Below are positions 16,285 through 32,987 of a DNA stretch of 32,987 nucleotides, piece by piece (position 1 is the stretch's first letter; each line of letters starts with the position of its first letter). Made by a program: the position numbers and the translations under genes. Below the pieces are notes generated by a model. That model had not been told where the DNA came from, did no database searches, and saw only the letters and a list, made by a program, of their open reading frames with translations. The DNA lies in contig JAITWN010000008.1 in the NCBI GenBank assembly GCA_031285245.1, forward strand, positions 1 to 32,987, read 5' to 3'. The DNA is from Chromatiales bacterium. Lineage in GTDB: Bacteria; Pseudomonadota; Gammaproteobacteria; SZUA-140.

Positions 16285-16295
16285 AGCTGCGGTAC
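16265..16295. terminator. 13-bp perfect hairpin spanning the stop codons of convergent MMPL and argA genes
   Basis: GTACCGCAGCTTC (16265..16277), loop ttcct, GAAGCTGCGGTAC (16283..16295). The MMPL TGA (16282..16284) lies at the loop/stem junction, and the argA stop (16296..16298) abuts the stem. The U-tracts are weak. Confidence 0.45.
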
Positions 16296-17609: not shown

Positions 17610-17717
17610 GGGATGTCTATGCCGAAATGATGACTAGTGTTTACTGGAAAAAGCTTTTAGCGTCGAGAGCTATCCTGCGGATAGAGCGCATATTTCTGAC
17701 CGGAGCGGTCAGTTAAA

Positions 17718-17754
17718 TTGTATCTTGTATACATGTACTAATTATATGTATATT
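17718..17754 (+). promoter_or_regulatory. two overlapping sigma-70-like promoters in an AT-rich palindromic block, facing small ORF 1
   Basis: TTGTAT (17718..17723), 17 nt, ATTATA (17741..17746). Also TTGTAT (17725..17730), 17 nt, GTATAT (17748..17753). The block contains the palindromes TGTATACA and TACATGTA. Confidence 0.35.
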
Positions 17755-17832
17755 AATCTCGCGATAGGTGACGGTGCGTATTTTCAGTAGCAGACGGCCA
17801 TCGATTTCAACCAGGCAATAAGGAGATACCCC

Positions 17833-17916
17833 ATGGAAAACACTCTCTCGATCACGGCGAGCTTGTCTTTTTCAATTCTGGCGATTGTCCTATTGTTCAG
17901 CCATATCATGAGCTGA
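17833..17916 (+). CDS. 27-aa hydrophobic (single-TM) peptide
   Basis: My translation: MENTLSITASLSFSILAIVLLFSHIMS*. A strong SD (AAGGAGA, 17820..17826) sits 6 nt upstream of the ATG, and a hairpin terminator lies about 50 nt downstream. Too short for the ORF track. Confidence 0.45.
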   Translation: MENTLSITASLSFSILAIVLLFSHIMS

Positions 17917-17968
17917 AAAAATTCGGCAAAACAATCGCCTGACATCGATCAGCGCTGTACACCATAGG

Positions 17969-18017
17969 ATTTCTAGGCGGACTAGGTCGGTCTGCCTAGA
18001 AATTCCTTACTTTTTTT
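17969..18017 (+). terminator. rho-independent terminator after small ORF 1
   Basis: A 13-bp stem pairs 17969..17981 with 17991..18003 (one G-U pair) around a 9-nt loop. A T7 run follows at 18011..18017. Confidence 0.55.
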
Positions 18018-18133
18018 GTATTCTTTTTCCCTGAGTGTTCTGCTAAGGTACCGATACTGCGCCGCTGAAGGGCTGTAGGCCGCAGTCGGAATCAACTCAA
18101 GTATTTGATGAATGGCAGACAGGAGGAAGGGGA

Positions 18134-18223
18134 ATGATCGAGCATAAAATTACGGCTTTGCTGGGTGTATGCGCCATCGCAACCGCGGTCGGCCTGTTTT
18201 TCTCGCACCTGGGGGCTGGCTAA
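18134..18223 (+). CDS. 29-aa hydrophobic (single-TM) peptide, paralogue of small ORF 1
   Basis: My translation: MIEHKITALLGVCAIATAVGLFFSHLGAG*. A strong SD (AGGAGGAAGGGGA, 18121..18133) and a terminator lie close by. It shares 'ITA' and 'FSH(I/L)' with the first peptide. Confidence 0.45.
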   Translation: MIEHKITALLGVCAIATAVGLFFSHLGAG

Positions 18224-18259
18224 GGGCCGTACTGCGGAAGCGTTCCTTCCGTCAGAAAT

Positions 18260-18296
18260 AAAAAAGGGGAGAACCCATTCGGTTCTCCCCTTTTTT
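18260..18296. terminator. bidirectional rho-independent terminator (small ORF 2 / secreted protein gene)
   Basis: A6, then GGGGAGAACC (18266..18275), loop cattc, GGTTCTCCCC (18281..18290), then T6. Confidence 0.8.
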
Positions 18297-18307
18297 ATGG
18301 TCTGTAT

Positions 18308-19474
18308 TCAGGGAGTAGGGCGAATGTTGGGATAGCTCCAGGGATTGGGGTTGGCCTGAGTTTCCTCGAAAAAGTTGTGCCAACTGTTCGCGTCGGGCAT
18401 CGCCTGGCCGCCATTGATGTAAGTGTAAGTACCGTTACTTCCGCCGGGACTACTTCCACTTGCGGCAGGGCCGGCAAACTCATCAGTGCTAGGGGTGAAG
18501 GTATATCGGCCTGCGGTGATCACCGAATTTTGAGAGTCGGTATTCATATCAAAGGAAGTTGAAGACGGCCCACCACCCGGAGGACGAAGATTCTGCGGCG
18601 CGCCTGGGCCCAGCAGTTCCATCGTATTAGTGACCACGGAGGCTGTAGCGTCGCTGTCGTATTTATTGCCTGCTGAATTGATATTGACCGTGCTGCGGAA
18701 TTGACCAGGCTGCTCAATGAGGTTGGTGATCGATGGCTTTTCATCGAAGCGGTTTTTCACGAAATCCAAGGTGAGCTCGCCATCTTTCAAGAACTGCTGC
18801 ATCTGCACACGGGCTGGATTAGCGCTCATATTACCGCTGAAACCATTATCGTTGTCGAGCGGATTGTAGGCGTTACTGCCCTGTGGGTTCTCTGTTCCTA
18901 TGCCGGTGCCGCCTGCTCCGCTGCTGGCGGAAACGTTGAGATTAGGATTGATGACGCCCGCACCCCCACCCCCACCAATAGCGTAATCGGCGCTACCCTC
19001 GGTGCAGGTTACTGGGCCACTGCACTGATCTCCTGTGGTGATGGCAAGCGCGTTGCCGTTGCTTGTGATCCGAATATAGACTTCTTGCGCGAAAACGGGT
19101 CCCGAGCTGTTACGCGGGTCGGTCGGGTTGTTCGCGGGGCCCAAGTCACCCATGATCATATGGAAGTATGAGACACCGCCATCTACGACCCTTTCGTATA
19201 TAAAAGGCGTCTGGTTGGGAACGATGATCTGACTCTCTGGGACAGCCGAGCTGCCATGAATGACAGCATCCGTGAGAGTCTGGCTGTTGCCAAACTCATC
19301 GGTATACCCAAAGGTGCGGGGGAACGCGGGAGTCGTGTCAGCAGTCCAATTCAGATTGAATTCCGCATGACTCTGCGCGGCGGGAAATAGCGTCGCCATT
19401 GAAAGCACAACTAACAAGCACAACCAACTTGCTTGTGCTTTTGCGTCCGTGAGTGATTTCAAACGAACGTTCAT
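18308..19474 (-). CDS. secreted Gly/Asn/Ser/Thr/Pro-rich protein of unknown function
   Basis: Track ORF 18308..19537. I start it at Met22 (ATG 19474), which gives the signal peptide MNVRLKSLTDAKAQASWLCLLVVLSMATLFPAAQSHA/EF. The mature protein has a central 'GGGGGAGVINPNLNVSASSGAGGTGIGTENPQGSNAYNPLDNDNGFSGN' region and one CxxxxxxC pair. I recognise no family. Confidence 0.6.
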   Translation of the reverse strand: MNVRLKSLTDAKAQASWLCLLVVLSMATLFPAAQSHAEFNLNWTADTTPAFPRTFGYTDEFGNSQTLTDAVIHGSSAVPESQIIVPNQTPFIYERVVDGGVSYFHMIMGDLGPANNPTDPRNSSGPVFAQEVYIRITSNGNALAITTGDQCSGPVTCTEGSADYAIGGGGGAGVINPNLNVSASSGAGGTGIGTENPQGSNAYNPLDNDNGFSGNMSANPARVQMQQFLKDGELTLDFVKNRFDEKPSITNLIEQPGQFRSTVNINSAGNKYDSDATASVVTNTMELLGPGAPQNLRPPGGGPSSTSFDMNTDSQNSVITAGRYTFTPSTDEFAGPAASGSSPGGSNGTYTYINGGQAMPDANSWHNFFEETQANPNPWSYPNIRPTP

Positions 19475-19481
19475 GGGTTCG

Positions 19482-19511
19482 ATTATAATACAACTATCTC
19501 CGCGCAACCAA
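19482..19511 (-). promoter_or_regulatory. candidate promoter placing the transcription start at or near the ATG of the secreted-protein gene
   Basis: Minus strand reads TTGGTT (19511..19506), 18 nt, TATAAT (19487..19482), 7 nt, then ATG (19474). No SD lies in between. ATTATAAT is itself palindromic. Confidence 0.25.
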
Positions 19512-19628
19512 TCGCCGTCGACGCTGTCCGATGTCATATCGGCCGATGGTTCTCAGGTGACCAACGCCACTCATTTTCGGGGGGAGTTTGCGCATGGCCG
19601 CTCTCGCCCGCCAATCGGGAATGCAGGT

Positions 19629-20894
19629 ATGACGTTCAGAATTATTTTTCCGCTAATCCTTGCTGGAAGTACTCTTGCTCTCAGTGGATGCTTGGAAGCT
19701 ATAAATAACTTGGGAGGAGCGCAGGACGCCACCCTTGCCCGGCCGACTGCTCCAGCATTTCTAAAGTCGCCTGCGACCGAGGGGATCAGCTACCAGTCTG
19801 CGGATGTCACCGGCGAGACTGACTCCTACGGTCAGTTCACTTACCAGGTTTCTCAGGACGTGACTTTCTCAGTAGGTGCCGTGGCCTTGGGCACTATTAC
19901 AAGCACCGTCGCGGCGCGTGGTGTGGTGACGCCGCTGGATCTGGTGGTATCAGATTCTGCAGGACCGACGACAATCACTAACAGCACAGTCCTGAATATC
20001 ACCCGCTTCCTGATGATGCTGGACCAGGACGGTGATCCTAGCAACGGCATCGTGATCTCGCCCGAGGTGCGGGAAGTCGCATCTACGTGGAATCAAGTAG
20101 ATTTCTCAAGCTCGAATTTTGAGGAGCAACTCACCGATATCATCAGCTCAGCCGCTAGTGTCGACGGTACCCCTCATGACTTGCCGGATGCCGCCGCTGC
20201 ACAAGCGCATCTGCGAAATACGCTGACCTGTTTGTATTCAGGCGCTTTTCAAGGACAGATCGGTGGCGATGCCACGGGTTATTTTGCATTTACTGTGAGC
20301 CCTGAGAGCCGATCACTGGGGGGATTCGTGTTTAGTCCCGCGACGGCTGCCGGGCGATTGCGTACGTTGGTTGCAACTGACCAGCTTGATTTTACTCAAG
20401 CACAGCTCTCCTTGGTCGGCTTTGATCTGGATAGTGTGTCTTCATATCAATATACAGTGCGGTATAACGGCCTCAACCAGGTTACCGGTACATGGTTCCC
20501 CAGCAGCACTACTGGTACTGGCCAGGGCGGTACGCCGGGTAATCTGTCCGGTGGGCGTCTCACGCCGGCCACGTTGACGGTGAACTACCGTGCCACGGGG
20601 ACGTTCAACGGTAGTTACGCGGGTGCTTGGGTGCTCGATATACCGCCACTCCCACAGACGGGTACAGTAAGGGTGCTGGGTCGTATGTATACGGTTAATC
20701 TCGATTCTAGTTTGACGCTGAACGGCGAAATAAGTCCGAATGGTAATCTCTCCATCACGGGTGAGGATGGCTCGACGCGCTTCGACGGGAATATCGATTT
20801 GACCACGTTGCATATCATTGGTACTTGGTCAAACGATTTTGCGGACCCGCGGGTTTCGGGAACGTACACCGGCGCGGCTTGCCGCTTGCTTTGA
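19629..20894 (+). CDS. lipoprotein of unknown function (421 aa)
   Basis: Starting at Met61 of track ORF 19449..20894 gives MTFRIIFPLILAGSTLALSG/C, a lipobox (LSGC) with Leu at +2. I recognise no family. The C-terminal half is rich in Gly-aromatic beta-strand motifs. Confidence 0.65.
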   Translation: MTFRIIFPLILAGSTLALSGCLEAINNLGGAQDATLARPTAPAFLKSPATEGISYQSADVTGETDSYGQFTYQVSQDVTFSVGAVALGTITSTVAARGVVTPLDLVVSDSAGPTTITNSTVLNITRFLMMLDQDGDPSNGIVISPEVREVASTWNQVDFSSSNFEEQLTDIISSAASVDGTPHDLPDAAAAQAHLRNTLTCLYSGAFQGQIGGDATGYFAFTVSPESRSLGGFVFSPATAAGRLRTLVATDQLDFTQAQLSLVGFDLDSVSSYQYTVRYNGLNQVTGTWFPSSTTGTGQGGTPGNLSGGRLTPATLTVNYRATGTFNGSYAGAWVLDIPPLPQTGTVRVLGRMYTVNLDSSLTLNGEISPNGNLSITGEDGSTRFDGNIDLTTLHIIGTWSNDFADPRVSGTYTGAACRLL

Positions 20895-20901
20895 TACCGC
20901 T

Positions 20902-22914
20902 ATGCTATCGATATTCAACGGTTTTTTCAGATTTTCTCTCATCGCGCCTTTGGTAATACTGCTCGCGGCGTGCAGCGTCGGCGACGACAGCGCTTATGTT
21001 GGCGGGGGGGACAATTCTCCTGGTCGCCCGGTACCGACCCCCGAAATCGGGGCTATCGGCTACGGTATCAAGCAATTTCGGTTCACTTGGCCGCCGGTAA
21101 CCAACGCTACGTCCTATCGTTTGTGTGAAGACCTTCACGCAGGCTTTGGTTGCGCCCCGCTCGGTTCGGATTTCGGTGCCAATACGTTCAAATATAACCA
21201 TGATCTCTTTTTGCCGAGCCGCCGCAACGCGACTTATATCCTCACCTCTTGCGAGGGTGATACGGGCGATACATGTGCCAGCTCTGCGAGCAAAGCCGTC
21301 GGCCGCAGTCGCGATATCAACCTCAATTTCGCTGTAGGTTATTTCAAGGCGACCAACACGGCGGCGAATCAGCAATTCGGATCTGCCGTCGCTTTGTCGA
21401 CGGACGGCAAAACGTTGGCGGTAGGCGCGCAAGGTGAGAGTGGCGCCGCCAGGGGCGCCTGTGATCCTGCTGATGATGCGTGTAAAAAAGCCCAGGCGAC
21501 AGGTACCCAGATAGAAAACTCCCAGACAGGCGCGGTCTATGTCTATCGCCTGGCTGCTGAGGGTTGGACGCCGGTAGCGTATATAAAAGCACCCAATGCC
21601 GATCCTAGGGATCAGTTCGGTACTTCCGTCGCTTTGTCGGGTGATGGAACGGTGCTTGCTGTTAGCGCACCTAATGAGGAGAGTAACGCGACGGTGGTGT
21701 GTGACCCTAAGGATGAGCAGTGCAAAGCGGCGATGGATGACAACTCCATCTGCTCTGCCAGCAAAGTCGGCTGTAACGCGGGTGCGGGGGCTGCTTATGT
21801 CTTTGCGCTTACAGATAAAGGCTGGGTGCCGCAAGCCTATGTCAAAGCGCCCAATACGGCGAGAAATGACAAATTCGGTCAGGCGATTGCGCTGTCGCAG
21901 GACGGTCAGATTCTACTGGTTGGCGCGCCGCGATCCCAAAATCCAGATCCTAATGCCCCATCTGTAGTAAGTGGAGGGCGGCAGCACGGCGCAGTTCATA
22001 TCTATGCCCACGAAAATGCAGGTTGGGCTTGGCAGCAATCCATTTATGGTGGAGGCCAGCAGTTTGGTTATGCGCTCGCAGTGAATGCCGGTGCAGATGT
22101 TCTTGCCATCGGTGCGCCCGCTGGCCCGCCAGCACCAGCGGTGGATGCTGGCGCGGTTTATATAGCCCGCAGGGGGGCGACGCCGCAAGATAAATGGAAA
22201 CTAACAAACGAACGCTTCATCCTTCAACCTAATGATGCTAGTCCTAGTTCTGGCTGCTTGGATACTCCCGTGAGTAGTTTGAGTAGTTGTTTTGGTTTTG
22301 CACTTGCGCTTTCAGCGGATGGCAATCGTTTGGCGATCGGAGCGCCAACGGAGGCGAGCAAGGCAACGGGTATCACAACAGTTCCCGCGCTGGGTACCAA
22401 CGACCAAGTGAACGCCTTGGCGCCTAATAGCGGAGCCGTTTATGTGCTCTCTTATTGCGTGGCACAAAATAATTGGTGTCCTGGTTACACTTTTATAAAA
22501 CCTAGTCCCCCCAGTTTTATGGTTATTGGGGGAGCCGATCGTTTTGGTTCTGTGGTCTCGCTTTCAGGCGATGGTACGACATTGGCGGTTGGCGCCTATC
22601 AAGACGGTACGCTGATGGCTGGTATCGATGGGCCGGAACCAGGACCGTCTGACGACCCCGGCGATAGTGTGCAAAGCGGCGCAGCCTATGTTTTCGCGCG
22701 CCCGCCCAATAGCGAGAGCTGGAGTCAGTCAGCCTTCGTCAAGGCGCCGAACATGACAAAAGAAGCCCAGTTCGGTTGGTCGGTGGCGATGGCGCGCGAT
22801 GGACAGACCATGGCGGTAGGAGCGTTTTTTGAAAATGGGTCTGACACTGGAGTAGTCAGTTCTGCGCTAAGCGAGGATAAAGTGGGTGGGGCCGGAGCGG
22901 TATATCTCTACTAA
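20902..22914 (+). CDS. FG-GAP repeat lipoprotein (FN3-like domain + 7-bladed beta-propeller)
   Basis: Starting at Met29 of the track ORF (ATG 20902, 7 nt after the upstream stop) gives MLSIFNGFFRFSLIAPLVILLAA/C, a lipobox with Ser at +2. Seven repeats follow the pattern (Q/K/R)FG..(V/L)ALS.DG..LAVGAP .... GA(V/A)Y(V/I)(Y/F). Confidence 0.8.
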   Translation: MLSIFNGFFRFSLIAPLVILLAACSVGDDSAYVGGGDNSPGRPVPTPEIGAIGYGIKQFRFTWPPVTNATSYRLCEDLHAGFGCAPLGSDFGANTFKYNHDLFLPSRRNATYILTSCEGDTGDTCASSASKAVGRSRDINLNFAVGYFKATNTAANQQFGSAVALSTDGKTLAVGAQGESGAARGACDPADDACKKAQATGTQIENSQTGAVYVYRLAAEGWTPVAYIKAPNADPRDQFGTSVALSGDGTVLAVSAPNEESNATVVCDPKDEQCKAAMDDNSICSASKVGCNAGAGAAYVFALTDKGWVPQAYVKAPNTARNDKFGQAIALSQDGQILLVGAPRSQNPDPNAPSVVSGGRQHGAVHIYAHENAGWAWQQSIYGGGQQFGYALAVNAGADVLAIGAPAGPPAPAVDAGAVYIARRGATPQDKWKLTNERFILQPNDASPSSGCLDTPVSSLSSCFGFALALSADGNRLAIGAPTEASKATGITTVPALGTNDQVNALAPNSGAVYVLSYCVAQNNWCPGYTFIKPSPPSFMVIGGADRFGSVVSLSGDGTTLAVGAYQDGTLMAGIDGPEPGPSDDPGDSVQSGAAYVFARPPNSESWSQSAFVKAPNMTKEAQFGWSVAMARDGQTMAVGAFFENGSDTGVVSSALSEDKVGGAGAVYLY

Positions 22915-23016: not shown

Positions 23017-23349
23017 ATGCGTATCTATGTTTTTGCGATGACCTTGGTGTGTGCTTCCTGCGCGACTACCACTCAGATCACGTTGCGTCACCCCACCAAA
23101 CAGCTTGATTCACCTGAGTATCAGGAAGATCAGGGTGTTTGTCGTACCTATGCGAATTCTGCTGCACCGATGCAAATGACCCCCGGCCACGGCCCACAGC
23201 GTGATCTGCAGAGTTGGTCCTTTTATTTTTACCGTTGCATGCACGACAAGGGTTGGGAAGTGGTGGATCAGGATGGCAACTCTGTCAGTCCCACACCGCA
23301 CGTAGCTGGGACACAAGTCCAGAGTAGTGATGCGATTCTGCCGCCTTAG
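23017..23349 (+). CDS. small exported protein, probable lipoprotein (110 aa)
   Basis: MRIYVFAMTLVCASC.. is a hydrophobic leader with Cys12/Cys15 but a non-canonical lipobox. A GGGGGA motif lies 9 nt upstream. A competing antisense ORF (23110..23376) has no such signals. Confidence 0.45.
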   Translation: MRIYVFAMTLVCASCATTTQITLRHPTKQLDSPEYQEDQGVCRTYANSAAPMQMTPGHGPQRDLQSWSFYFYRCMHDKGWEVVDQDGNSVSPTPHVAGTQVQSSDAILPP

Positions 23350-23532
23350 CTTTTTGTTCGTCTCCTTCCATCGCATCTACGTAAACCCACTATTGGGTTC
23401 GTGCGTTTTCGCGAGTGTTGTGCAAGCATTGAACCTATCGTCATCCGGCATTGCATTGATAAATATCAGTCGATGTCCATGTGCAAAGGGCTGGGCCTAG
23501 TCCCGCTCGACCTTCGTCAAAAGGAGGGGCAA

Positions 23533-25365
23533 GTGAAATTTCTCGGTTCCATCTTCACGTTGAATAAGGCTGGCCGGTTGGCCGCGCTGTGTTTCATGGC
23601 TTTGTTAGCAGCGTGCTCTAACAGTGTTCCTCCTGGTACTCCTGGTAGTAATGGCGGCGGCGGCGGCGGCGGCGGAGATAGCGGTGGCGGTTCTAATATT
23701 GCTGTGACTGGTGTTTCAGTGAACAAACCATCGCTCAGTCTGGCGGTGGGCAGCAGCGATACGATTACAGCAACGGTTTTTCCAGACACTGCTACCAACA
23801 AGAAGGTGACATGGAAGAGCAGCGCGCCCGAGGTTGCCACTGTAAATGGCTCGGGTAGGGTCACCGCTGTGGCCTTGGGCGATGCCATCATCACCGTCAC
23901 TACAGACGATGGACAAAAGACCATCTCTATTCCGGTGGCGGTGTCTTCAGGCATTACCTCCGTCACACCTCTTTCGGCGTCGCACGGTGCTATCGTCACT
24001 ATTAAAGGTGTGGGTTTTGGTGGGACGCCGGAAGAAAATAGCGTGGCGTTCGGCAGCGTCCCCGTGAAGGTAACCAATGTGGAGGTGATCCCTGAGACGG
24101 CGGAAACCTCCAGCTCTATGGTGCTCACGGTCGAAGTGCCCAAAAATCTCGCTGCCTCCGGCAATGTGCGAGTGACGGTGGGGAAGCAAACGGCGGTTTC
24201 TACGGCGACTTTCACGTATGTGCCGATTTATGTCGTTAGTACGTTGGCGGGTAGCAATACCGCGAGCTTTGCCGATGGCGTGGGCACGGCTGCGATATTC
24301 AATCACCCCGAGGGGGTTGCTGTGGATGCCACGGGCAAGGTGTTGTATGTGGCGGATACGGGCAACCACCGCATTCGCAGCATCAATATTGACGACACCG
24401 TAGACAGTGGCGATGCGAAGGTTAAGCCTTTCGGCATGGTCGAGACTTTTGCGGGTAGTGGAGAAGCGGACTTTTTCGATGATATTGCTATAGCGGCGAA
24501 ATTTCGTTCTCCTGCCGGCGTTACTGTGGATACTGCGGGCAATGTGTATGTGGCGGATACCGGCAACCACCGCATTCGCAAGATCGACAAGGACCGTGTA
24601 GTTTCGACCTTCAAGGGGGACGGAACAGCAGGCTTTGTTGATAGCGTCGCCGACCTCGTCAGTGGCGGTGTGACGCCGGGGAGATTTAACTCTCCTCGTG
24701 GCATCGCTGTGATCCCTGAGAAAGATGCCGATGGCAATGTGTCGAATGTTTGGTATGTGGCAGATACTGGCAACCATAGTATTCGCCGCATCACCATCAA
24801 CGGTGGCGTGGCGACCTTCGCGGGTAGTGAGGGGAAAGCAGGCTTTCTTGACGATACCAGTAAAAAAGCACAATTCGACTCTCCTGCCGGTATCGCCGTG
24901 GACGCCGCATACAATGTGTATGTGGCGGATAGGGGCAACAACCGCATTCGCCGCGTCACACCTCCCACCAAAGTTACTCTTGATGATAATACGGTGGTTA
25001 CCCTTGATGGCACGGTAAAGACCTTCGCGGGTGAAGAAGTAGAAGGGAGTGGGGTTAACTCTCCTTACGGCGTCGCTGTGGACGCTAAATACAATGTCTA
25101 TATTGCGGATACCAACAACAACCGTATCCGCAAAGATATCCTCACTAACGCCGACGGCCCAAGTGGTCTGACAACCACTGTCTCTACTTTAGCGGGTACT
25201 GGAGCATCGACACCCCTGATCGATGACACCACCCCTTTATCTGCGACTTTCAATGCTCCTCATGGCGTTGCCTTTTATAGTGTTACCGTGAGCGGTGTGC
25301 CTATGACGTATGTGTACATAGCGGATACCGACAACAACCGTATTCGCAGAATCGCGCCGGAGTAG
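23533..25365 (+). CDS. lipoprotein with Gly-rich tether, Big_2 domain, IPT/TIG domain and 6-bladed NHL beta-propeller
   Basis: I place the start at GTG 23533, 5 nt after AAGGAGG. This gives VKFLGSIFTLNKAGRLAALCFMALLAA/CSNS, a lipobox with Ser at +2. The Big_2 domain is 'VTGVSVNKPSLSLAVGSSDTITATVFP...KVTWKSS.PEVATV...G.VTAVALGDAIITV'. The IPT domain is 'ITSVTPLSASHGAIVTIKGVGFG'. Six repeats end in (V/I)AD(T/R)(G/N/D)N(H/N)(R/S)IR(R/K/S)(I/V/D). Confidence 0.8.
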   Translation: MKFLGSIFTLNKAGRLAALCFMALLAACSNSVPPGTPGSNGGGGGGGGDSGGGSNIAVTGVSVNKPSLSLAVGSSDTITATVFPDTATNKKVTWKSSAPEVATVNGSGRVTAVALGDAIITVTTDDGQKTISIPVAVSSGITSVTPLSASHGAIVTIKGVGFGGTPEENSVAFGSVPVKVTNVEVIPETAETSSSMVLTVEVPKNLAASGNVRVTVGKQTAVSTATFTYVPIYVVSTLAGSNTASFADGVGTAAIFNHPEGVAVDATGKVLYVADTGNHRIRSINIDDTVDSGDAKVKPFGMVETFAGSGEADFFDDIAIAAKFRSPAGVTVDTAGNVYVADTGNHRIRKIDKDRVVSTFKGDGTAGFVDSVADLVSGGVTPGRFNSPRGIAVIPEKDADGNVSNVWYVADTGNHSIRRITINGGVATFAGSEGKAGFLDDTSKKAQFDSPAGIAVDAAYNVYVADRGNNRIRRVTPPTKVTLDDNTVVTLDGTVKTFAGEEVEGSGVNSPYGVAVDAKYNVYIADTNNNRIRKDILTNADGPSGLTTTVSTLAGTGASTPLIDDTTPLSATFNAPHGVAFYSVTVSGVPMTYVYIADTDNNRIRRIAPE

Positions 25366-25461
25366 GCTCAGGACAGGAAGCTCGAAAACCGCAGCAACGA
25401 TGGGCGGGCAAGTACAGCTCAGTGTTTGGATTAGGATCGTTGCGAGCTATCAGGAATCAAG

Positions 25462-25504
25462 GAGCGTCATCACCAGTGCGGGGTGATGGCGCTCTTTGCT
25501 TTTG
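25462..25504 (+). terminator. rho-independent terminator after the NHL lipoprotein gene (in the convergent intergenic region)
   Basis: GAGCGTCATCACC (25462..25474), loop agtgcgg, GGTGATGGCGCTC (25482..25494; one G-U pair), then TTTGCTTTTGTT. Confidence 0.7.
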
Positions 25505-25584: not shown

Positions 25585-28500
25585 CTAGAAACTGAACGAA
25601 ACACCTGCCGACGTCGAGATGTTGCTGTAATCACCCAGTGAGGAGCTTTGCAACCCGATGGCGGTTGCCGAGTCTTCGGGCGACAGGATGAATCCTGTTG
25701 GCAGGTTCGATTCGTTAAATCGATAAGACATATTAGCGAACAGGCGCAAGCTGGTTGACAGATAATAGTTTATTCCGAGAGACATATTCTGCATGAAATT
25801 CACTCGATGCCGGGTATAGAGCGTTAGGGAGTCCGGATAGGTGTATTGCAGGTATGAGGTGTTGTAGCCAGCGTTTGCGCTCAGACCTGGGCGCAGGAAA
25901 CGGATCAACTGTGCTGATACGCTGTGACTGGTATAGGCGAAATCGCTGCCGACGCTTGTGGTGTTGTTATTGATGCCGTAGTTGTAGCCGAGCGTCCAGC
26001 GCCAACCGGTGCCGAGCTGCTGATTGACGGTGCCGCCGATGGTGTAATTATTGGCATCAAAGATCGGCGAGGTTGCCGATCGCATCTGGTTTGCGCTCAG
26101 GGTGAAATCCCACAATCCAGAACCGACCTGCCCGTCTCCAAGCCAGCTCAGCCATTTTGGCATGGTGAATGAGCCCGATATGGTTCCGCTCACTTCGTCT
26201 GTGGTGCTTTGCTTGATTTGGAGTAGCAGCAATTCGCCGCTGTTGTGGGTGTAGTTCAGAGAGTAATCGAGTCCTTTCCAATACGCTGAAACGAAGGGGT
26301 TATAACCCAGAGAAAGCATATCGAATTGCCCGCGATGGAAGGTCTGATAGCCTCCAGTCAAGCTGATACCGAGGAAAATCGGTCGACGATACAGTTTGCG
26401 CCGATATGTCACGCTAGTGTTCAATGACGAACGGAATTCTTCGCTGGGATTGTCGCGGCTGAGATTGAAGTTACTGTCGTAGCCAGATTGGTAGCCCACA
26501 CTATAGGAAAAGCCGTCGAGGCGTTGAGAGAGGGCTGCCAAACGTTCCCGCGCGGTCACTTCGAGACCGCTAGGTAAAGTGCGCGCCAGTGCGGTTCGGT
26601 ACGCATCGAGTGCGTCTTCCTCACGACGCATCTGTTCATACAGCATGCCGAGACTTAAGTGTGCCGGACCATGCTGGGGTACGATGCGGATCACTTCCTC
26701 ATACTCATGCGCGGCTTCTACGTATGCGCCGCGGGCGGCGAGCAGCATGGCCAGATAGAAGTGGGCGGTATAATCGTCCGGATTGCGTTCGGCGATAGCA
26801 CGGAAGCGGCGCTCAGCTTCTTCGTTGCTCCCTTCAGTGGCCGCACGCCGCGCCGCGGCGGACTCCAGCTTGTTGTTCAGTGCTGCTATCAGCAGGGGGG
26901 GCTCCGTCAGCAATTCAAGCGCGCGCTGATAAGCACCTTCAGCCAATTTAAATTCCGACAGCATGTCATAAATTTCGCCGAGCTTTGCCTGTGTCATGCC
27001 GTCTTCAGGCTTCAGACGCAGCATGTTTTCGTATGCTTCGCGCAAGTCCGTTGGGCGGTTGAGGGTTTGGGCAGCGGCGGCAAGTCTCGACCATGCCTCA
27101 TAATCGTCAGAATTGTCGATCAGTGGCGCACGTCGATCCTGAATCAACTTGTCCTGGGTTTGTTGCCGTAATTGCGCGCCCGCTTCTCCCGCATAGAGAG
27201 TAGCGAGCAGTTGTTGCGCGTCCTTGGTGGCTGGGCTGTTACCGCTGGCGATACGCGTCTCTTCCAGCTCGCGCGTACCGTCTTCCTTGCGCTCTAATTC
27301 GAGATAAAGCGCGGCTAGCCTGAAATGGACATCGGGACTATCGGGGCGCTGGGCGGCCATTTTCTTTAGTACGTCCAGAGCCTGATCTTTCTGATCGAGA
27401 CCGTGATAAGCAACGGCGAGATTGATGGCGGCGCTGATATCATTGGGATCAATGGAGAGCAGCTCTTGAAACAGGTCTCGTGCTTGAGCGAAATTACCTT
27501 CCTTGATAGCAGTCGTTCCCTGCAGCGAGAGGATGCGGCTGCGCAGACTAGGGGCCATATCGCTATCCGGTGGTAACATCTCAAGCAGTTTGTGATACTG
27601 AGCGATAGCCTGATCGGTTTGATCAGTGTGCTCGTAAATCTCGACGAGAAAGGAACGTAATTTGACGTTTTCTGGTTGCTGTGCAATTAACGCTTCCAGC
27701 AGATGCTGAGCGCCCGCAGTGTTGTTATCGCTGATGTAACCACCGAGGATTTCACGCAATAGCACATCGTCTCCGGCATGCTGCTGCAGCAAGCGCATGA
27801 ATTGCTGTTGTGCGAGCTCTGGATTCTGGCGTGCTTCGATGCGTGGCGACAGTACGCGTATGCGATCGTTTACCCCGCCTATTTCGGGCGCGCCGGGAGG
27901 AGCTGTGGCGATGACTAGGCGGTATTCACGCAGTGCTGCCGCGGGATCGCCGAAACTATCGAGGCCGCGGGCGAGCACCAGGCGTACGCGGTAGTTGTCT
28001 GGCACTAGCGCTGCGCTGCGCGCAAGCGCGCGCAGCCCCGCTTCGGGGTTTTTGAGCTGAAGCTGGAGGTTGCCGATGAAGTACAGTGCTTCGGCGTGAC
28101 TAGGCTCCAGCGTCTGTGCGGCCTCCGCTGCGCGTAGTGCTCCCTGCGAATCACCGCGTGCCATGCGTGCTCTCGCTTCATTGAGCAGACTAGGCACATC
28201 CTTTAGGGCTGCAATGGTTGGGTCGTCCACGGGCTCGGTTTTCCCCGAAATTCCCATGGCGGTGCCTTTTGACAGTCGCTCGATCTCTTTCTGTGCTTCG
28301 ATTGCTTCGGATGCGCCTGGTGGTGCCATTGCCACTACGGTGCGTAATTGTTGCAGCGCTTCCTGTGGGGTGGCAAAACGTTCATAGGCGCGGGCTAGCG
28401 CTAGGCGCAGGCGATAATTGTTCGGCGATAGTTGTAGGCTTCTCTCTAGCGCCTGTAAGCCCGGCTCCATGCGATCGAGCTGAAGATTGACGTTGCCGAT

Positions 28501-29139
28501 GAGAAATAGCAGTTCCGCATCGTCGGGCTGCTTGGCGCGCGCGAGCTCGAAGGCTTCCAGTGCGCCTTCAGGATTATTGCGCGTAAGGCGTTGTTTGCCT
28601 GCGGCGATCAGAACCTCGGTATCGGTATCTGGACTCAGCGCTATGGTGCCGACTTCATCAAGCGTTCGACCTACTTCCAGCTCAGTGATACGCTTTCTGG
28701 CGTCCTCGGCTTCTGGCGCTCCTGCGGGTGCATCTTGGATAACACGGCGATATTCACGCAGCGCGTCCTCTCGGGCTCCCGCCTTTTCCTGAGCTTTCGC
28801 TAATTGCAGGCGCACGCGATAACGTTCCGGCGCCAATTCGACGCTGCGGGTAAGCGCGGTAATACCTGCTTGAAGATGCTCAGCCTGGATGTAAAGAAAG
28901 CCAGCGAAGAAGAGCGCCTCGGCATTATCAGGGTCCTGCGCAATGGCTTCCTCGAAAGCGCGCAAGGCTTGCGCGGAGTTGCCTTCCGCGATGTGACGGC
29001 GGCCTTCAGCCACTAGCGCGGCACTCTCATTCGCTGATTGTGCGTAGATCGGCGTCGACATCCAGGCGCCGCCGAGCATGAGCAGTAAGCTCAGCGCCGC
29101 TAGGTGTTTTGCTCGTTTCGCACGTCCCGTGATGCTCAT
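25585..29139 (-). CDS. 1184-aa outer-membrane protein: signal peptide + about 830 aa of TPR repeats + 310-aa C-terminal beta-barrel
   Basis: Signal peptide ..LLLMLGGAWMSTPIYA/QS. TPR-like helical repeats run throughout residues 40-860. Residues 875-1184 show alternating hydrophobic/aromatic beta-strand patterning ('FSYSVGYQSGYDSNFN', 'WRWTLGYNYG', 'SLGINYYLS', 'RLFANMSYRF'). The protein ends in the OMP beta-signal '..STSAGVSFSF'. Confidence 0.8.
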   Translation of the reverse strand: MSITGRAKRAKHLAALSLLLMLGGAWMSTPIYAQSANESAALVAEGRRHIAEGNSAQALRAFEEAIAQDPDNAEALFFAGFLYIQAEHLQAGITALTRSVELAPERYRVRLQLAKAQEKAGAREDALREYRRVIQDAPAGAPEAEDARKRITELEVGRTLDEVGTIALSPDTDTEVLIAAGKQRLTRNNPEGALEAFELARAKQPDDAELLFLIGNVNLQLDRMEPGLQALERSLQLSPNNYRLRLALARAYERFATPQEALQQLRTVVAMAPPGASEAIEAQKEIERLSKGTAMGISGKTEPVDDPTIAALKDVPSLLNEARARMARGDSQGALRAAEAAQTLEPSHAEALYFIGNLQLQLKNPEAGLRALARSAALVPDNYRVRLVLARGLDSFGDPAAALREYRLVIATAPPGAPEIGGVNDRIRVLSPRIEARQNPELAQQQFMRLLQQHAGDDVLLREILGGYISDNNTAGAQHLLEALIAQQPENVKLRSFLVEIYEHTDQTDQAIAQYHKLLEMLPPDSDMAPSLRSRILSLQGTTAIKEGNFAQARDLFQELLSIDPNDISAAINLAVAYHGLDQKDQALDVLKKMAAQRPDSPDVHFRLAALYLELERKEDGTRELEETRIASGNSPATKDAQQLLATLYAGEAGAQLRQQTQDKLIQDRRAPLIDNSDDYEAWSRLAAAAQTLNRPTDLREAYENMLRLKPEDGMTQAKLGEIYDMLSEFKLAEGAYQRALELLTEPPLLIAALNNKLESAAARRAATEGSNEEAERRFRAIAERNPDDYTAHFYLAMLLAARGAYVEAAHEYEEVIRIVPQHGPAHLSLGMLYEQMRREEDALDAYRTALARTLPSGLEVTARERLAALSQRLDGFSYSVGYQSGYDSNFNLSRDNPSEEFRSSLNTSVTYRRKLYRRPIFLGISLTGGYQTFHRGQFDMLSLGYNPFVSAYWKGLDYSLNYTHNSGELLLLQIKQSTTDEVSGTISGSFTMPKWLSWLGDGQVGSGLWDFTLSANQMRSATSPIFDANNYTIGGTVNQQLGTGWRWTLGYNYGINNNTTSVGSDFAYTSHSVSAQLIRFLRPGLSANAGYNTSYLQYTYPDSLTLYTRHRVNFMQNMSLGINYYLSTSLRLFANMSYRFNESNLPTGFILSPEDSATAIGLQSSSLGDYSNISTSAGVSFSF

Positions 29140-29154
29140 GGCATTTTTGCTGCG

Positions 29155-30051
29155 CTAGAAGTAGTACGTTGCTTTGATTGCAGCCTTCCAGCCGCTGAAA
29201 TCGAGCTTGAGATCGCGATACTCGCCGTCAGGCCCGGTTTTGTATTGCATGCGGCCGTTGTCTCCCGCCTGCCCTGGGTAGTGGATGATGACGTTGTCCG
29301 TAGTGAGGAAGTCGGTAAGGAGCTGTGCGTTACCGAGATCCATTTTCCGTATTCCCAGGTCATAGCTTCCTTCGAGCCCAAGGGATATACGATTACTGAT
29401 AAACCATTCTCCGCCCGCCGTGCCCTGGAGCAGGACTGCGCCGGTTGTTTGGGCTAGGGTGACGGATGTTTTGCGAAAGCTGCGTGCATCGCCGCTGAGA
29501 AAAATGGTGGTGAAATCCTCGCGGTAATTGATGTCGTACATCTGGTGTAGCGTGCCGGCGAGGTAAAGCCGGTATTTCCCAGGCTCGGAACGCATCACAT
29601 GGCGCCAGCCTAAATAGAATTCGGTATACGACAGACTGGCATTGCGCTGCGCGTCAATATTTTCGAGTGCGCCTTGGATAGGCATGATGGTAACGCCAGA
29701 GACCGATGAGCGCGCCTGCCAGGTGCCCACGCCAAATAGCAGCAAGTTGCGATCGTTGTGGCGCCACTGGATTTCAAGCCCTGCCATTGGGCTGGGATTC
29801 AGGGGCTCTAAAGGCATTTCCAACAGGAAAGAGCTTTCCTGGTTGCTGGTGGAAGGGTCAATGAACTGCGCGGTGCCTTCGAATGGCGCGCGAAAGAGGC
29901 CCCTGTTGAGAGCTTTCAAGGATGGGGAGTATAGCCCGAGAAACGGAGAGATTCCCCACTGGCGCGCTTCGGCTTCCTGGGCGCGAACAGGGGGGCAGGC
30001 GAGCAGCGCAGCCGCAACAGCGATACTGGAGATGGCGACAAATGCGCGCAT
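29155..30051 (-). CDS. 298-aa outer-membrane beta-barrel protein
   Basis: The leader MRAFVAISSIAVAAALLACPPVRA/QE allows an SPase I site after VRA or a possible lipobox LLAC. Amphipathic strands alternate and the protein ends '..AAIKATYYF'. It lies 15 nt upstream of the TPR-barrel gene. Confidence 0.65.
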   Translation of the reverse strand: MRAFVAISSIAVAAALLACPPVRAQEAEARQWGISPFLGLYSPSLKALNRGLFRAPFEGTAQFIDPSTSNQESSFLLEMPLEPLNPSPMAGLEIQWRHNDRNLLLFGVGTWQARSSVSGVTIMPIQGALENIDAQRNASLSYTEFYLGWRHVMRSEPGKYRLYLAGTLHQMYDINYREDFTTIFLSGDARSFRKTSVTLAQTTGAVLLQGTAGGEWFISNRISLGLEGSYDLGIRKMDLGNAQLLTDFLTTDNVIIHYPGQAGDNGRMQYKTGPDGEYRDLKLDFSGWKAAIKATYYF

Positions 30052-30078: not shown

Positions 30079-31608
30079 TCAGAACATATATTTGAAATTG
30101 ATATAGACTCGATCATTGTCATGGAAGTTACCGACGAACTGTGAACGCTGATCAAGCACCGTTGGCTGTCCAATCTGATTGGAAAGGACGCCGAACTGGG
30201 ATGACGCGCCGGAAAAGAAATTTGCCCCCAGGGTGACATTAAAGTGGTCGGTGAGACGAAAAGTCCACGCTGGATTTAGATACGTCTCGCGCTGGTTGAC
30301 AAAACGAATCGCGAGTATTTCAAACAGGATGCCGCTTTGTGCGAAATCCTTGCGTATGAATAAATTGATGCTGTTGTCGAAGCGGCTCTGCACCATGGCG
30401 ATGTCGTAGTCGAGAATGATCCATTGCGTGATGCCGGGGGCAATGTCGAAACCCGCCCAGTTAAATTCCAAGCCAAGCCCCCAACGGATATGGTCACTCT
30501 GGACTTCGCCGAGGTTGTCAAGAAAGCCGTCTCGATTACGATCGACATCGATGACCGCGAAATACTTCCCGGTGACATAAGTGCCTTCGCCTTTCACGAT
30601 CATGTCCCCCACCTGGCGGCTGAAAGTACCGCCGTACATGTTCATGCGCGTGTACGTGGCTAGAAACTTTGGGTTATCTGCCTCGTTCTGATTCAGCAGC
30701 AAGCTCCGGAATACGGTCGGAAAATCATCCCAAGTGTAGAAGTAACTCAGCGTTACATCGGTGTTCCAGATGTAGGTACTGTAACGCAGCCCGATCTCTG
30801 AATTCTTGAGCGTAAAGGAGTCTGGCTCGGTGGTGCCGGGCACGCGCTGCAACAGCTCCCACTCTGAGCCTGGTGGCGCTGGTTTGTGGAAGTGCAGATC
30901 AGGTATCCATAGCAACTGCCAGGTATCGTCACCGCGAAAATACTCGAACTTGGCGGTCCACAGCGGGATACGGTAATCAATCAGGTCAGGCATGATCAGT
31001 TCGCGAAAGTCGACCGGATTGACTTCGTCCACGATGCGTACGCCTTCGAGCACACCCCAGACTACGAACTGACGTCCAACGCGAATATCCAGATTGTCGA
31101 ATAGGAAATCGACATAGAGTTCGCGTACCTCCATGCCCATGGAGTCGCGATCCTTGCCCAGATTGAACAGAAAGGCGAGCGGTTGGTCAGAGTTCCGTGC
31201 GAGGCGCGCGGCGATGGTGTCGTAGTCGAACAGGTCATAGGCCATGTCGTACCAGGCCACACCGGTGAAATTGCCTTTGATGCTCGGGCTGAAATCGTAA
31301 GTCGCATTCAGATAGCCAACGTTGCGCATTTTGGTGATTGAGCGCGGTTGTTTGATTCGAAAAGCCGTCTCATTCTTGAGATAGCCACTCCATTGGATGG
31401 AGTTGGAATCAGACTGGGGCGACGAGCTCGGAAATGCGAGTGGCTCATCGCCGCTAGCGGATTCTGGAAACAGGGGATCGTCGGTTAGGCTGGGCCTATT
31501 GGTGAGCAGCGGAGAGGAGTTCAAACTCTGGCCCCAGACTTGAGCTGATCCGCCAACGAGGAGCGCGCTTATCAGTGCCACATGCGGCAACACATTCCTG
31601 ATCAGCAA
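30079..31608 (-). CDS. 509-aa outer-membrane beta-barrel protein (DUF1302 / alginate-export-like)
   Basis: TTG start at 31608, 4 nt after AAGAGGGGGA, followed by a signal peptide and a Ser/Pro-rich linker. 'WSGYLKNETAFRI' and 'VRELYVDFLFDNLDIRVGRQFVVWG..EG.RIVDEVNPVD' recall DUF1302 / AlgE-type barrels. It ends '..YINFKYMF'. The family call is from memory of motifs only. Confidence 0.6.
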   Translation of the reverse strand: MLIRNVLPHVALISALLVGGSAQVWGQSLNSSPLLTNRPSLTDDPLFPESASGDEPLAFPSSSPQSDSNSIQWSGYLKNETAFRIKQPRSITKMRNVGYLNATYDFSPSIKGNFTGVAWYDMAYDLFDYDTIAARLARNSDQPLAFLFNLGKDRDSMGMEVRELYVDFLFDNLDIRVGRQFVVWGVLEGVRIVDEVNPVDFRELIMPDLIDYRIPLWTAKFEYFRGDDTWQLLWIPDLHFHKPAPPGSEWELLQRVPGTTEPDSFTLKNSEIGLRYSTYIWNTDVTLSYFYTWDDFPTVFRSLLLNQNEADNPKFLATYTRMNMYGGTFSRQVGDMIVKGEGTYVTGKYFAVIDVDRNRDGFLDNLGEVQSDHIRWGLGLEFNWAGFDIAPGITQWIILDYDIAMVQSRFDNSINLFIRKDFAQSGILFEILAIRFVNQRETYLNPAWTFRLTDHFNVTLGANFFSGASSQFGVLSNQIGQPTVLDQRSQFVGNFHDNDRVYINFKYMF

Positions 31609-31702: not shown

Positions 31703-32515
31703 TTATCGGCCGCCGCGCGTCAGATTGCGTTCAGAGAACACGTCGTCACTCAGCCCAATGTTCACCTTGGCTTCGCTGACTTCGAAGATGGAGCGGTGAT
31801 TGGTTTGCACATTGTGCACGTTGACCTCGCTCCACAGCCAAGCGTCATCAATACGCTGCCATTTGATGGACTGCTGTTTCAGAAGTTCACCTTTCGGATC
31901 GTAGTAGTCAATTTGCTGTTTGTGGCAGTCGTCCCAGTTGTTGGTCATCACGTACTGGGAAACAACATGGCTATAAAGCTGCAATGTACCCGGACGCGGA
32001 ACGCTCTTGATGTTGATGATTTTTTGCCCGTCGTGTTCTTCCGCACCCAGGACGGTATGATCGTCCTCATCGAGACCGCGCGGGCTGATATCGGCATAGG
32101 TCAGATCTGAGCCAAGGAAGCTGTCACCGGGATCACGCACCGAGACTCGGCGGGTTTTCTTGAGTGCCGGCAGATAGATCCACTGCTCAGCGTTTTTGCC
32201 GGTATAGGCCCAGCGCATGAACGCAGAACCTTGGGCATCCGGCGGGTACTCCGTGAATAGCACCATCTTTTCGGTGATACCATCACGGCCTTTGAAGTCT
32301 TTCCAGTAACGCCGATAGATATTGACCTTGTCATTGGCATCGCGGTCGCGCAGGGTGATTTTCAGCCGCGTCTGTTGATCTTCACCGGGATAGCGTGCGT
32401 CGCATTTCTGGACGATGTCACGCGCGGTGATCTGCGGCGCTTCCTGTGCCGTGCTGATCGTCGGCGCCAGCCCTGCCGACAAGGCAACTGCCAGTATCAC
32501 GCCTGTTTTACGCAT
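31703..32515 (-). CDS. periplasmic LolA-like 'outer membrane lipoprotein-sorting' family protein
   Basis: I place the start at ATG 32515, 8 nt after AAGGAGA (Met7 of the track ORF). Signal peptide MRKTGVILAVALSAGLAPTISTA/QE with no Cys. 'MVLFTEYPPD..GSAFMRW...EQWIYLPALKKTRRVS....DSFLGSDLTYADI' matches the LolA_like family usually found beside MMPL/RND or ABC exporters. Confidence 0.75.
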   Translation of the reverse strand: MRKTGVILAVALSAGLAPTISTAQEAPQITARDIVQKCDARYPGEDQQTRLKITLRDRDANDKVNIYRRYWKDFKGRDGITEKMVLFTEYPPDAQGSAFMRWAYTGKNAEQWIYLPALKKTRRVSVRDPGDSFLGSDLTYADISPRGLDEDDHTVLGAEEHDGQKIINIKSVPRPGTLQLYSHVVSQYVMTNNWDDCHKQQIDYYDPKGELLKQQSIKWQRIDDAWLWSEVNVHNVQTNHRSIFEVSEAKVNIGLSDDVFSERNLTRGGR

Positions 32516-32796
32516 AAAACTGATCTCCTTCACGAAACAGCATTAGTTTTAGGGCTATTTTAAAGTGCCGATTTGGTGGGGTATCGGCGCGACCTTCTTG
32601 CCAATCTGGTCGCTGCGGCGGGTAGCGGTAAAGCTCAAGGTATCCCGGCAAGCGGCCGAAATTATAGCAAAGGGATTTTGTAGGCGCATCCAGCATAGCG
32701 ATGCCCTAATTTTAAGAGGCGACCCCTGGCTGAATTTCGCCTGGTCGCAGTGACTGGTCCGGCATCAACGATCCGGACTCTGCCTGGAGAGAGACC

Positions 32797-32987
32797 ATGA
32801 TGAAAAAACGTATAGAAAGATTTTGTGGTTTGGCTTTCGGCTCTGCTGCTTTTTTGGCTGCAGGTGCTGCACTGGCAGTTCCGCCGACAGGTTTTGGCGG
32901 TTATGGTAATTTTTCGACGAGCGCCGGCGTCGTCACGGTGGCGTGCCCGGCGGGTTACACGTGCGCGAATCTGATCGCGGCCGGCAC
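32797..32987 (+). CDS. secreted protein, 5' end only (runs off the right edge)
   Basis: My translation from ATG 32797, downstream of GGAGAGAG: MMKKRIERFCGLAFGSAAFLAAGAALA/VPPTGFGGYGNFSTSAGVVTVACPAGYTCANLIAAG.. It has a clear signal peptide and is divergent from the LolA-like operon. Confidence 0.5.
   Translation, partial: MMKKRIERFCGLAFGSAAFLAAGAALAVPPTGFGGYGNFSTSAGVVTVACPAGYTCANLIAAG

Follow-up and report, generated by a model that had tools for sequence, protein, structure and literature searches.

Slam proteins, together with the type 11 secretion system (T11SS), form to our knowledge the only dedicated lipoprotein translocon known in Proteobacteria. They combine a tetratricopeptide repeat (TPR) domain with a 14-stranded DUF560 barrel (PMC5449769, PMC8406197), and about half of the Slams adjoin the genes of their lipoprotein cargo (PMC5449769). 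T11SS secretes soluble proteins too, and at marine T11SS loci a single cargo family is represented by several paralogues, lipidated as well as non-lipidated (PMC8406197, PMC12282271). Here, we describe a gene of comparable design, the TPR-barrel gene, on a 32,987-bp stretch of DNA from a Chromatiales bacterium (the window, which is the whole contig JAITWN010000008.1). The gene encodes a protein of 1184 amino acids (aa), in which a long periplasmic TPR arm is followed by a C-terminal barrel modelled with 14 strands, and it is the last gene of an operon that recurs in related, uncultured Gammaproteobacteria. Since the TPR-barrel is constantly accompanied by a LolA-like carrier and two barrels, it looks like part of an undescribed envelope export machine, and not like a sugar-polymer exporter.

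The partners in this operon lead to a second described system. The module of DUF1302, DUF1329 and resistance-nodulation-division (RND) proteins is widespread, including in Pseudomonas and other pathogens, and its mutants have phenotypes; we know of no mechanism for it. DUF1302, the LolA-like DUF1329, a BNR propeller and an HAE3-type RND transporter form a cofit cluster, and were proposed to export a constituent of the cell envelope (bioRxiv 10.1101/072470). AmeABCD of Castellaniella is composed alike, and gives tolerance to monoterpenes as well as efflux of the dye Nile Red (PMC6394551). In addition, DUF1302 is predicted to form a barrel of 18 strands and to bind DUF1329 (PMC13499233). The Ame study was the only one we found in the literature that combines HAE3, LolA, RND, and the outer membrane, and in the T11SS literature we found no mention of LolA-like, DUF1302, or RND partners.

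The TPR arm and the C-terminal barrel

The TPR-barrel gene is an intact open reading frame (ORF) with an ATG start, and has full-length homologues in related loci, which are designated here by L numbers (67% identity over 1191 aa in L034, and 37% in L003). Its N-terminus, MSITGRAKRAKHLAALSLLLMLGGAWMSTPIYA followed by QS, has a basic n-region, a hydrophobic core and an A-x-A-like site, and reads by eye as a Sec signal peptide. Many Pfam TPR families match from residue ~41 to residue ~854, and a hidden Markov model (HMM) trained on the protein's own repeats places 20 TPR units at residues 50–857, in a periplasmic solenoid of ~840 residues and roughly 20 hairpins. The N-terminal part of this solenoid is built of tandem modules. 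Three of them are present in the window protein and four in L003, and the alignment of the ~900-aa relatives starts only at about residue 310, in the third module; arm length therefore evolves through module duplication. Directly before the barrel, the TPR_Slam model PF24575 scores 40.1 bits in the window protein and 55.7 bits in L003 (cut-off 35.2), and on the window protein generic TPR families outscore it.

The barrel belongs to a family that existing models do not describe. It has no Pfam match at E≤10 and none in NCBIfam, and neither single-sequence nor profile searches of PDB sequences returned a match. An exhaustive HMM search over 1.84 billion cluster representatives (clusters at 50% identity) recovered 147 representatives at E≤1e-3, 104 at E≤1e-10, and 43 at E≤1e-30; word-indexed homology searches missed nearly all of the family, with 3 and 5 matches. 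The barrel match lies at the extreme C-terminus in almost all of the 147 representatives, most of which are 870–950 aa long, with some of 1200–1800 aa and a few of 2400–2900 aa. TPRs precede the barrel in the seven ~900-aa relatives that were scanned, none of which attains any NCBIfam cut-off, and three shorter relatives gave no NCBIfam match or only a weak TPR-type (MamA) match. One relative is named by NCBI only as 'tetratricopeptide repeat protein'.

AlphaFold2 models the barrel, from an alignment of 41 family barrel sequences (A2), with 14 strands (predicted local distance difference test score, pLDDT, 89.4; predicted template-modelling score, pTM, 0.83), and an earlier model from three sequences had 14 strands as well. 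In Foldseek searches against the PDB, the best folds are the 14-stranded CymA and OmpG (template-modelling score, TM, 0.61–0.71), and no solved Slam structure is among the fold matches listed. From the strand count and the CymA and OmpG matches, we infer that the modelled barrel is closed. An earlier note on this DNA, made from the letters alone, had described a TPR arm of about 20 repeats joined to an outer-membrane barrel of about 310 aa (25588–26517), and had left the strand number between 14 and 16–18. The intact ORF, the TPR matches with their 20 units, and the model with its 14 strands over 308 aa bear this architecture out.

Conservation within the barrel is concentrated in few places. 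Nearly all invariant residues fall at barrel residues 13–24, 183–193, 225–238, and 266–295, and the four strongest conserved segments are SNxN after strand 1 and, in the connections of strands 9 and 10, 11 and 12, and 13 and 14, respectively, NxN..GxDxAY, NPDS..R, and NxSNLPxGF…QSxSLGDY. Given a periplasmic TPR arm and the order of the strands in the model, we infer that these segments are the extracellular loops L1, L5, L6, and L7, of which L1 and L7 would border the strand 1–14 seam. Model confidence is low only in the strand 13–14 loop, which includes a short helix. The modelled position of the conserved loops beside the seam suggests a lid, a plug, or the latch of a lateral gate.

The family-level signal of the barrel comes from its relatives. 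When each of the 41 family barrels was scanned against Pfam, seven matched PF04575 (SlipAM/DUF560), with a best E of 8.5e-6; in the same scan, eight matched the generic OMP_b-brl and two matched Porin_4. Among ten divergent members, the SlipAM alignments (1–249 to 1–245, 148–251 to 147–248, and 119–251 to 136–270) are colinear with the 288-position model, and the last of them reaches 22.4 bits against a gathering score of 22. Like the Slam/T11SS proteins, for example N. meningitidis Slam1/2 and X. nematophila NilB/HrpB, the TPR-barrel has a periplasmic TPR domain before a 14-stranded barrel of ~290–310 residues, with the TPR_Slam match at the junction, and genes for lipoproteins and for Sec-secreted soluble paralogues adjoin it. 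Because strand number, domain length, and the colinear matches agree, the TPR-barrel family is probably a remote branch of the DUF560 (Slam/T11SS) barrels. YaiO-family membership was ruled out, as the window barrel matches no YaiO model at E≤10; no YaiO match is found among the 25 listed of the 28 families matched by the 41 relatives.

Another gene of the window bears on the quality of the contig. groEL is frameshifted (6927–8553, minus strand): the ORF at 8137–8553 codes for GroEL from residue 1 to residue ~105 before it leaves the frame, the ORF at 6927–8306 encodes the remainder, and groES (8599–8889) is intact. The split groEL is either a pseudogene or an indel error of the contig, which may therefore hold indel errors; the TPR-barrel ORF is intact and colinear with its homologues.

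The operon and its relatives

In the window, the operon runs head to tail on the minus strand from the LolA-like gene through the DUF1302 gene and the gene of a 298-aa probable outer-membrane protein (OMP298) to the TPR-barrel gene, with gaps of 94, 27, and 15 nt. The LolA-like protein has a signal peptide without a lipobox, and its orthologues, 45–83% identical, stand at the same position. OMP298 has no Pfam or NCBIfam match and only chance-level matches to PDB sequences; two of ten relatives have weak OMP_b-brl matches. The possibility that OMP298 is a TPR-less paralogue of the TPR-barrel's own barrel was ruled out (hhalign probability 1.6%).

Related loci came from one genome scan, one metagenome scan with a 10-sequence alignment, and contig look-ups, and were compared by tblastn and blastp. 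An OMP298 homologue lies upstream of the TPR-barrel gene in 15 of the 16 distinct loci with enough upstream flank (L003/L007, L008, L009, L011, L012, L013, L016, L019, L020, L024, L026, L028, L030, L033, and L034). It stands directly upstream, except in L030, where an extra TPR-only gene intervenes. DUF1302 precedes OMP298 wherever the flank suffices, the contigs of L009, L013, and L024 ending earlier, and in most of these loci the operon begins with the LolA-like gene. This order is kept down to 23–28% identity of the TPR-barrel. The hosts are uncultured and mostly from sediment, and relatives are labelled 'MAG: Gammaproteobacteria bacterium'.

The position of the RND gene varies. It lies between DUF1302 and OMP298 in L003, L008, L011, L012, L019, and L028. 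In L024 it is immediately upstream of OMP298, and the contig begins inside it. No RND gene was seen within the 10–20 kb stretch around the operon in L020, L026, L030, L033, or L034. The RND transporter of the window, encoded 9 kb from the operon, is 51–54% identical over its full length to the in-operon pumps of L003, L008, L011, L012, L019, and L024, and by this identity is a displaced orthologue of the in-operon pump.

The comparison with Ame-like clusters (AmeABCD of Castellaniella defragrans, and Sama_1588-1591 of Shewanella amazonensis) is informative in both directions. These clusters share with our loci the DUF1302 barrel, a LolA-like, DUF1329-related protein, and an HAE3/MMPL-type RND transporter. 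However, the BNR/Ycf48-like propeller (COG4447) is absent here, with no BNR or PSII_BNR match among the window ORFs or the L003 operon genes. OMP298 and the TPR-barrel stand instead in the operon position of BNR as two extra outer-membrane proteins, the RND gene is often unlinked, and the LolA-like protein is matched best by PF17131 and not by PF07044. By gene content, the operon is a variant of the DUF1302/LolA-like/RND module, from which BNR is absent and in which two outer-membrane proteins, one with a long TPR arm, are constant members.

Several further genes accompany the operon in relatives. L019 has two tandem LolA-like genes at the operon head (L019:146-1012 and 1053-1889). In the ~900-aa clade, a small gene stands between the LolA-like and DUF1302 genes (L012:1074-1619, L019:2162-2620, L020:5252-5707, L028:1639-2070); its product weakly resembles CopG/ribbon-helix-helix proteins at the N-terminus and has a Cys-rich motif at the C-terminus, and may by these features be a dedicated regulator. 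The window has no counterpart, because the gap between the two genes is only 94 nt. In the same clade, the operon is followed by a convergent pair of ABC-2 permease and ATPase genes (L011:10965-12973, L012:9542-11841, L016:4698-6982, L019:10532-12564, L020:10930-13253, L028:10017-11717), and beyond this pair there is mostly a tsaD-like gene, recognised by its N-terminal sequence only.

Flanking lipoproteins and the secreted family

Beyond the operon, the window holds genes that could encode its cargo (Table 1). The earlier note had pointed to lipoproteins, a LolA-like carrier, and two further barrels as neighbours, and we find the LolA-like protein, DUF1302, OMP298, and four lipoproteins. The lipoprotein context thus stands for the window, but it is conserved only in the window's own clade. 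Homologues of one of the lipoproteins, Lipo_481, adjoin the TPR-barrel gene in L001, L002, L003, L006, L033, and L034 (54% identity in L034), and the one in L003 follows the TPR-barrel gene after 26 nt and on the same strand. Lipo_481 has no Pfam match, including to TbpBBD, and its matches to PDB sequences are at chance level. The closest relative, L034, has the same surroundings as the window, with the small, FG-GAP, and Lipo_481 lipoproteins convergent to the operon and then a secreted protein. The NHL/Big_2/TIG lipoprotein has no counterpart at its position in L034, and looks like a recent insertion into the lipoprotein cluster. The pattern scan that gave the terminator-like hairpin downstream of this gene returned 3 sites, against 0.4 expected by chance.

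The secreted family is more broadly distributed. It was found in six of the seven loci with at least 1 kb of upstream flank, with two copies in the window, four in L034, two in L030, and one each in L011, L020, and L026. The copy that is cut by the contig end (32797–32985) matches the N-termini of three L034 paralogues at the same position. Family members share loosely conserved motifs, namely A-PP-x-FGG, a pair of Cys residues, GxGFLQ…YxQTIV, FxxESFV, and, at the C-terminus, WD..FG..PT.P. In Pfam, the family gives nothing beyond a weak DUF5885 match, and we found no literature on the family or on DUF5885. By their copy number and position, these flanking paralogues look like substrates more than machinery.

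Near some relatives of the TPR-barrel gene there are genes for TPR-GT41 proteins (O-GlcNAc-transferase-like, some with SEC-C), a TPR-sulfotransferase, and methyltransferases (L001:3097-8587, L003:12466-15897, L027:4391-6043 and 15774-21547, L033:1-3151). They are present even at the very distant 2897-aa relative, and none is in the window. Such genes might point to modified cargo, or be a mere habit of the lineage.

Table 1. Features of the 32,987-bp window, with members of the secreted family in related loci (positions prefixed with the locus).
Feature	Position	Strand	Evidence and remarks
TPR-barrel gene	25585..29139	-	Signal peptide, TPR solenoid and 14-stranded barrel; ORF, Pfam TPR families, full-length homologues
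Putative Sec signal peptide, residues 1-33	29041..29139	-	Probable cleavage between IYA and QS; judged from translation by eye
Three tandem ~130-aa TPR modules (residues 35-165, 170-300, 310-440)	27820..29037	-	40-47% pairwise identity
Remaining TPR solenoid (residues ~441-860)	26560..27819	-	Includes TPR_Slam-type match, residues 760-811
Predicted C-terminal 14-stranded beta-barrel, residues 877-1184, 308 aa	25588..26511	-	Opens FSYSVGYQSGYDSNFN; AlphaFold2 model, no database family model
Most conserved family motif, NESNLPTGFILSPED..TAIGLQSSSLGDY, in loop between strands 13 and 14	25627..25716	-	Conservation in alignments A2 and A3
OMP298, 298-aa probable outer-membrane protein	29155..30051	-	15 nt upstream of TPR-barrel gene; C-terminus ...KATYYF
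DUF1302 outer-membrane barrel	30079..31608	-	PF06980 E 3e-17; orthologues 47-78% identical, same operon position
LolA-like periplasmic protein, first operon gene	31703..32533	-	PF17131 143.6 bits, weak DUF1329 27.3 bits
HAE3/MMPL-type RND transporter	13780..16284	+	MMPL, Patched and sterol-sensing domains; TIGR00921 HAE3 213 bits
Secreted protein, signal peptidase I type, candidate cargo	18308..19474	-	49% orthologue in L034, partial in L002; distant paralogues in L011, L020, L026, L030, L034
Lipo_481, conserved lipoprotein, lipobox LSGC, candidate cargo	19629..20894	+	Lipobox by eye
FG-GAP repeat lipoprotein, lipobox LAAC	20902..22914	+	PF14312; 46% orthologue at same position in L034; conserved in L002 too
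Small lipoprotein, 110 aa, lipobox ASC	23017..23349	+	Homologues beside TPR-barrel gene: L002 49%, L034 69%
Big_2/TIG/NHL-propeller lipoprotein, lipobox LAAC	23401..25365	+	Probable start 23533; Pfam; convergent with TPR-barrel gene
Terminator-like hairpin, 17 bp	25458..25498	+	Between convergent NHL lipoprotein and TPR-barrel genes; consensus pattern match only
Second secreted-family member, N-terminal part (…AVPPTGFGGYGNF…)	32797..32985	+	Divergent from operon, cut by contig end
Secreted-family members in relatives	L034:202-1257, 1827-2819, 2875-3945, 15290-16390; L030:186-1358, 1658-2764; L011:121-966; L020:2815-3885; L026:2777-3856

Proposed function and its alternatives

The function that we favour, with about even confidence on the sequence comparisons above, is that of a Slam/T11SS-like surface translocon with a periplasm-spanning docking arm, working inside a variant of the DUF1302/LolA-like/RND system. 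The barrel would be an outer-membrane exit or insertion gate of the Slam/T11SS kind, with the conserved extracellular loops beside the strand 1–14 seam of this gate. The long TPR arm, whose length would in principle be enough to span the periplasm, as proposed for BcsC, would be where the LolA-like carrier, and perhaps the RND pump, docks. Cargo that is lipid-anchored or for another reason cannot cross the periplasm without help would be passed to the barrel, and then be displayed on the surface or released. The likeliest cargo would be the adjacent multi-copy secreted family and, in the window's clade, the adjacent lipoproteins, while DUF1302, OMP298, and the RND pump would be partner components inherited from a DUF1302/DUF1329/RND envelope system. 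A bolder version of this proposal, which we hold only tentatively and think somewhat unlikely, is that all five proteins (the DUF560-like translocon with its TPR arm, a dedicated LolA-like carrier, DUF1302, OMP298, and the HAE3 RND transporter) form an undescribed multi-component machine that places its own set of lipoproteins and the multi-copy secreted family on the surface.

Several observations weigh against a Slam/T11SS-like translocon. The window barrel itself falls short of PF04575 altogether, with no match even at E≤10, and the matches of its relatives are near or below threshold and no stronger than those to OMP_b-brl and Porin_4. PF04575 also catches a few 16-stranded PgaA/HmsH proteins (PMC8406197), and weak matches to it are therefore not decisive alone. 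The TPR arm of ~840 residues is about five times longer than that of Slam (~140–170 residues). Known Slam/T11SS need no DUF1302, LolA-like paralogue, or RND pump, whereas the TPR-barrel shares its operon with a LolA-like protein, DUF1302, a 300-aa outer-membrane protein, and an RND pump; these partners are otherwise tied to the export of hydrophobic small molecules or lipids (PMC6394551; bioRxiv 10.1101/072470). Among the neighbouring lipoproteins and secreted proteins, no TbpB-type C-terminal cargo barrel is recognisable by sequence in Pfam or among PDB sequences. In the ~900-aa clade no lipoprotein neighbours were found with the lipobox pattern as a rough guide, a crude regular expression that missed two true window lipoproteins and picked up antisense ORFs. 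The operon is also absent at the very distant giant relative L027 (2897 aa), the sole exception among the 16 loci.

We regard it as very improbable that the TPR-barrel is an orphan exopolysaccharide exporter of the BcsC, PgaA, PelB, or AlgK-AlgE type whose synthase is encoded elsewhere in the genome. A long periplasmic TPR superhelix, of ~20 repeats as in BcsC, before a C-terminal barrel characterises BcsC, PgaA, and PelB; the NCBIfam models of BcsC, PgaA, and PrsT match the TPR region, PF04575 is known to catch some PgaA/HmsH proteins, and some relatives (L001/L003, L027, L033) have GT41, sulfotransferase, and methyltransferase genes close by. However, these matches are confined to the TPRs and far below cut-off (NF008520 BcsC 34.5 bits vs 858; TIGR03939 PgaA 28.7 bits vs 366), and the barrel has 14 strands, not the 16 of these porins or the 16–18 expected of the type. 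Foldseek places the PelB and PgaA structures only at ranks 40 and 48 (TM 0.45–0.46), hhalign probabilities for the A2 alignment are 0.4% with the PgaA barrel of E. coli and 0.1% with its BcsC barrel, and no BcsC or PgaA barrel family is among the listed Pfam matches of the 41 family barrels. GT41 enzymes glycosylate proteins and are not polymer synthases. No synthase, deacetylase, or cyclic di-GMP receptor was found in the window or in the 15 operon-sharing loci, and the large ORFs of the window include no glycosyltransferase, in keeping with the earlier note, which had seen no polysaccharide machinery near the gene. That note had weighed a PelB/BcsC-like orphan exporter against an unusually large Slam-like protein. 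The former fails on strand number, on model and profile comparisons, and on gene content, and the gene is no orphan, being the last of a conserved operon. The Slam-like option is the better of the two: the 14 strands and the weak colinear DUF560 matches of relatives speak for it, but because the window barrel has no PF04575 match, Slam membership is not established. PrsT (TIGR02917), the PEP-CTERM/XrtA-associated TPR lipoprotein of ~900 aa, resembles the common ~900-aa family form in length; it is the second-highest NCBIfam match of the window protein, after MamA, and the top or second match of the ~900-aa relatives. PrsT/PEP-CTERM membership was ruled out, since the scores of 138–174 bits are below the cut-off of 312 and come from the TPRs alone; the loci showed no exosortase or PEP-CTERM genes.

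Two other explanations accept the operon as an envelope system and assign the TPR-barrel a different part in it. The first is that the operon exports lipids or other hydrophobic compounds in an Ame-like or HpnN-like manner, with the RND pump extracting them from the inner membrane, the LolA-like protein shuttling them, and DUF1302 acting as the outer-membrane channel. The TPR-barrel and OMP298 would then be accessory, as a periplasm-spanning scaffold, second outlet, or insertase in place of the BNR/Ycf48-like propeller that belongs to the canonical cluster of four genes, and the lipoproteins and secreted proteins encoded at the flanks would either be bystanders or use the exported lipid. We consider lipid export the main alternative, possible though on balance unlikely. 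It fits the gene content well, as the LolA-like protein, DUF1302, and the HAE3 RND pump are the core both of AmeABCD (PMC6394551) and of the cofit cluster (bioRxiv 10.1101/072470), the pump is HAE3/MMPL/HpnN-like and in relatives lies inside the operon between DUF1302 and OMP298, and DUF1302 is predicted to be 18-stranded and to bind DUF1329 (PMC13499233). The lack of a BNR protein in the window, the ~900-aa clade found without lipoprotein neighbours, and methyltransferase genes that recur nearby can be read in the same way. Yet it is the pump that is least constant, being missing from the operon and the 10–20 kb around it in five loci and 9 kb away in the window, unlike DUF1302, OMP298, and the TPR-barrel, which stay together across the operon-sharing loci. 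The only family-level signal of the barrel is to a protein translocon family, the multi-copy secreted paralogues beside the operon resemble substrates rather than machinery, and no lipid-biosynthesis genes are conserved beside it. The other explanation is a structural or biogenesis role, in which the TPR arm would tie the outer membrane to partners in the periplasm or inner membrane, or chaperone the assembly of both neighbouring barrels in a BamD-, BepA-, or LptD-LptE-like manner, with its own barrel as an anchor only. TPR proteins of the envelope are often assembly factors, and the BamD, BepA, LapB, and PilW models match in part; in addition, the TPR-barrel gene is constantly paired with OMP298 and DUF1302, and the most conserved loop may plug the barrel. 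But 14 strands and family-wide conservation of the extracellular loops exceed what an anchor needs, and an arm that ranges from ~560 to more than 2500 residues across the family is hard to fit to a tether of fixed length, and we judge such a role to be improbable.

The transport of lipoproteins, and possibly of lipids, to the surface of Gram-negative cells is only partly understood, as is the periplasmic hand-off step in Slam/T11SS. The operon described here physically joins a Slam-like barrel, a DUF1302/DUF1329/RND module, and plausible cargo genes, and the barrel family, with 147 clusters at 50% identity, is one that no database models so far. If lipid export is the true function, HAE3 RND pumps would have in the TPR-barrel an outer-membrane partner of a new kind. 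If the multi-component machine is true, the operon would encode a new, elaborated type 11-like secretion system, and would give the first functional handle on the widespread DUF1302/DUF1329 module.

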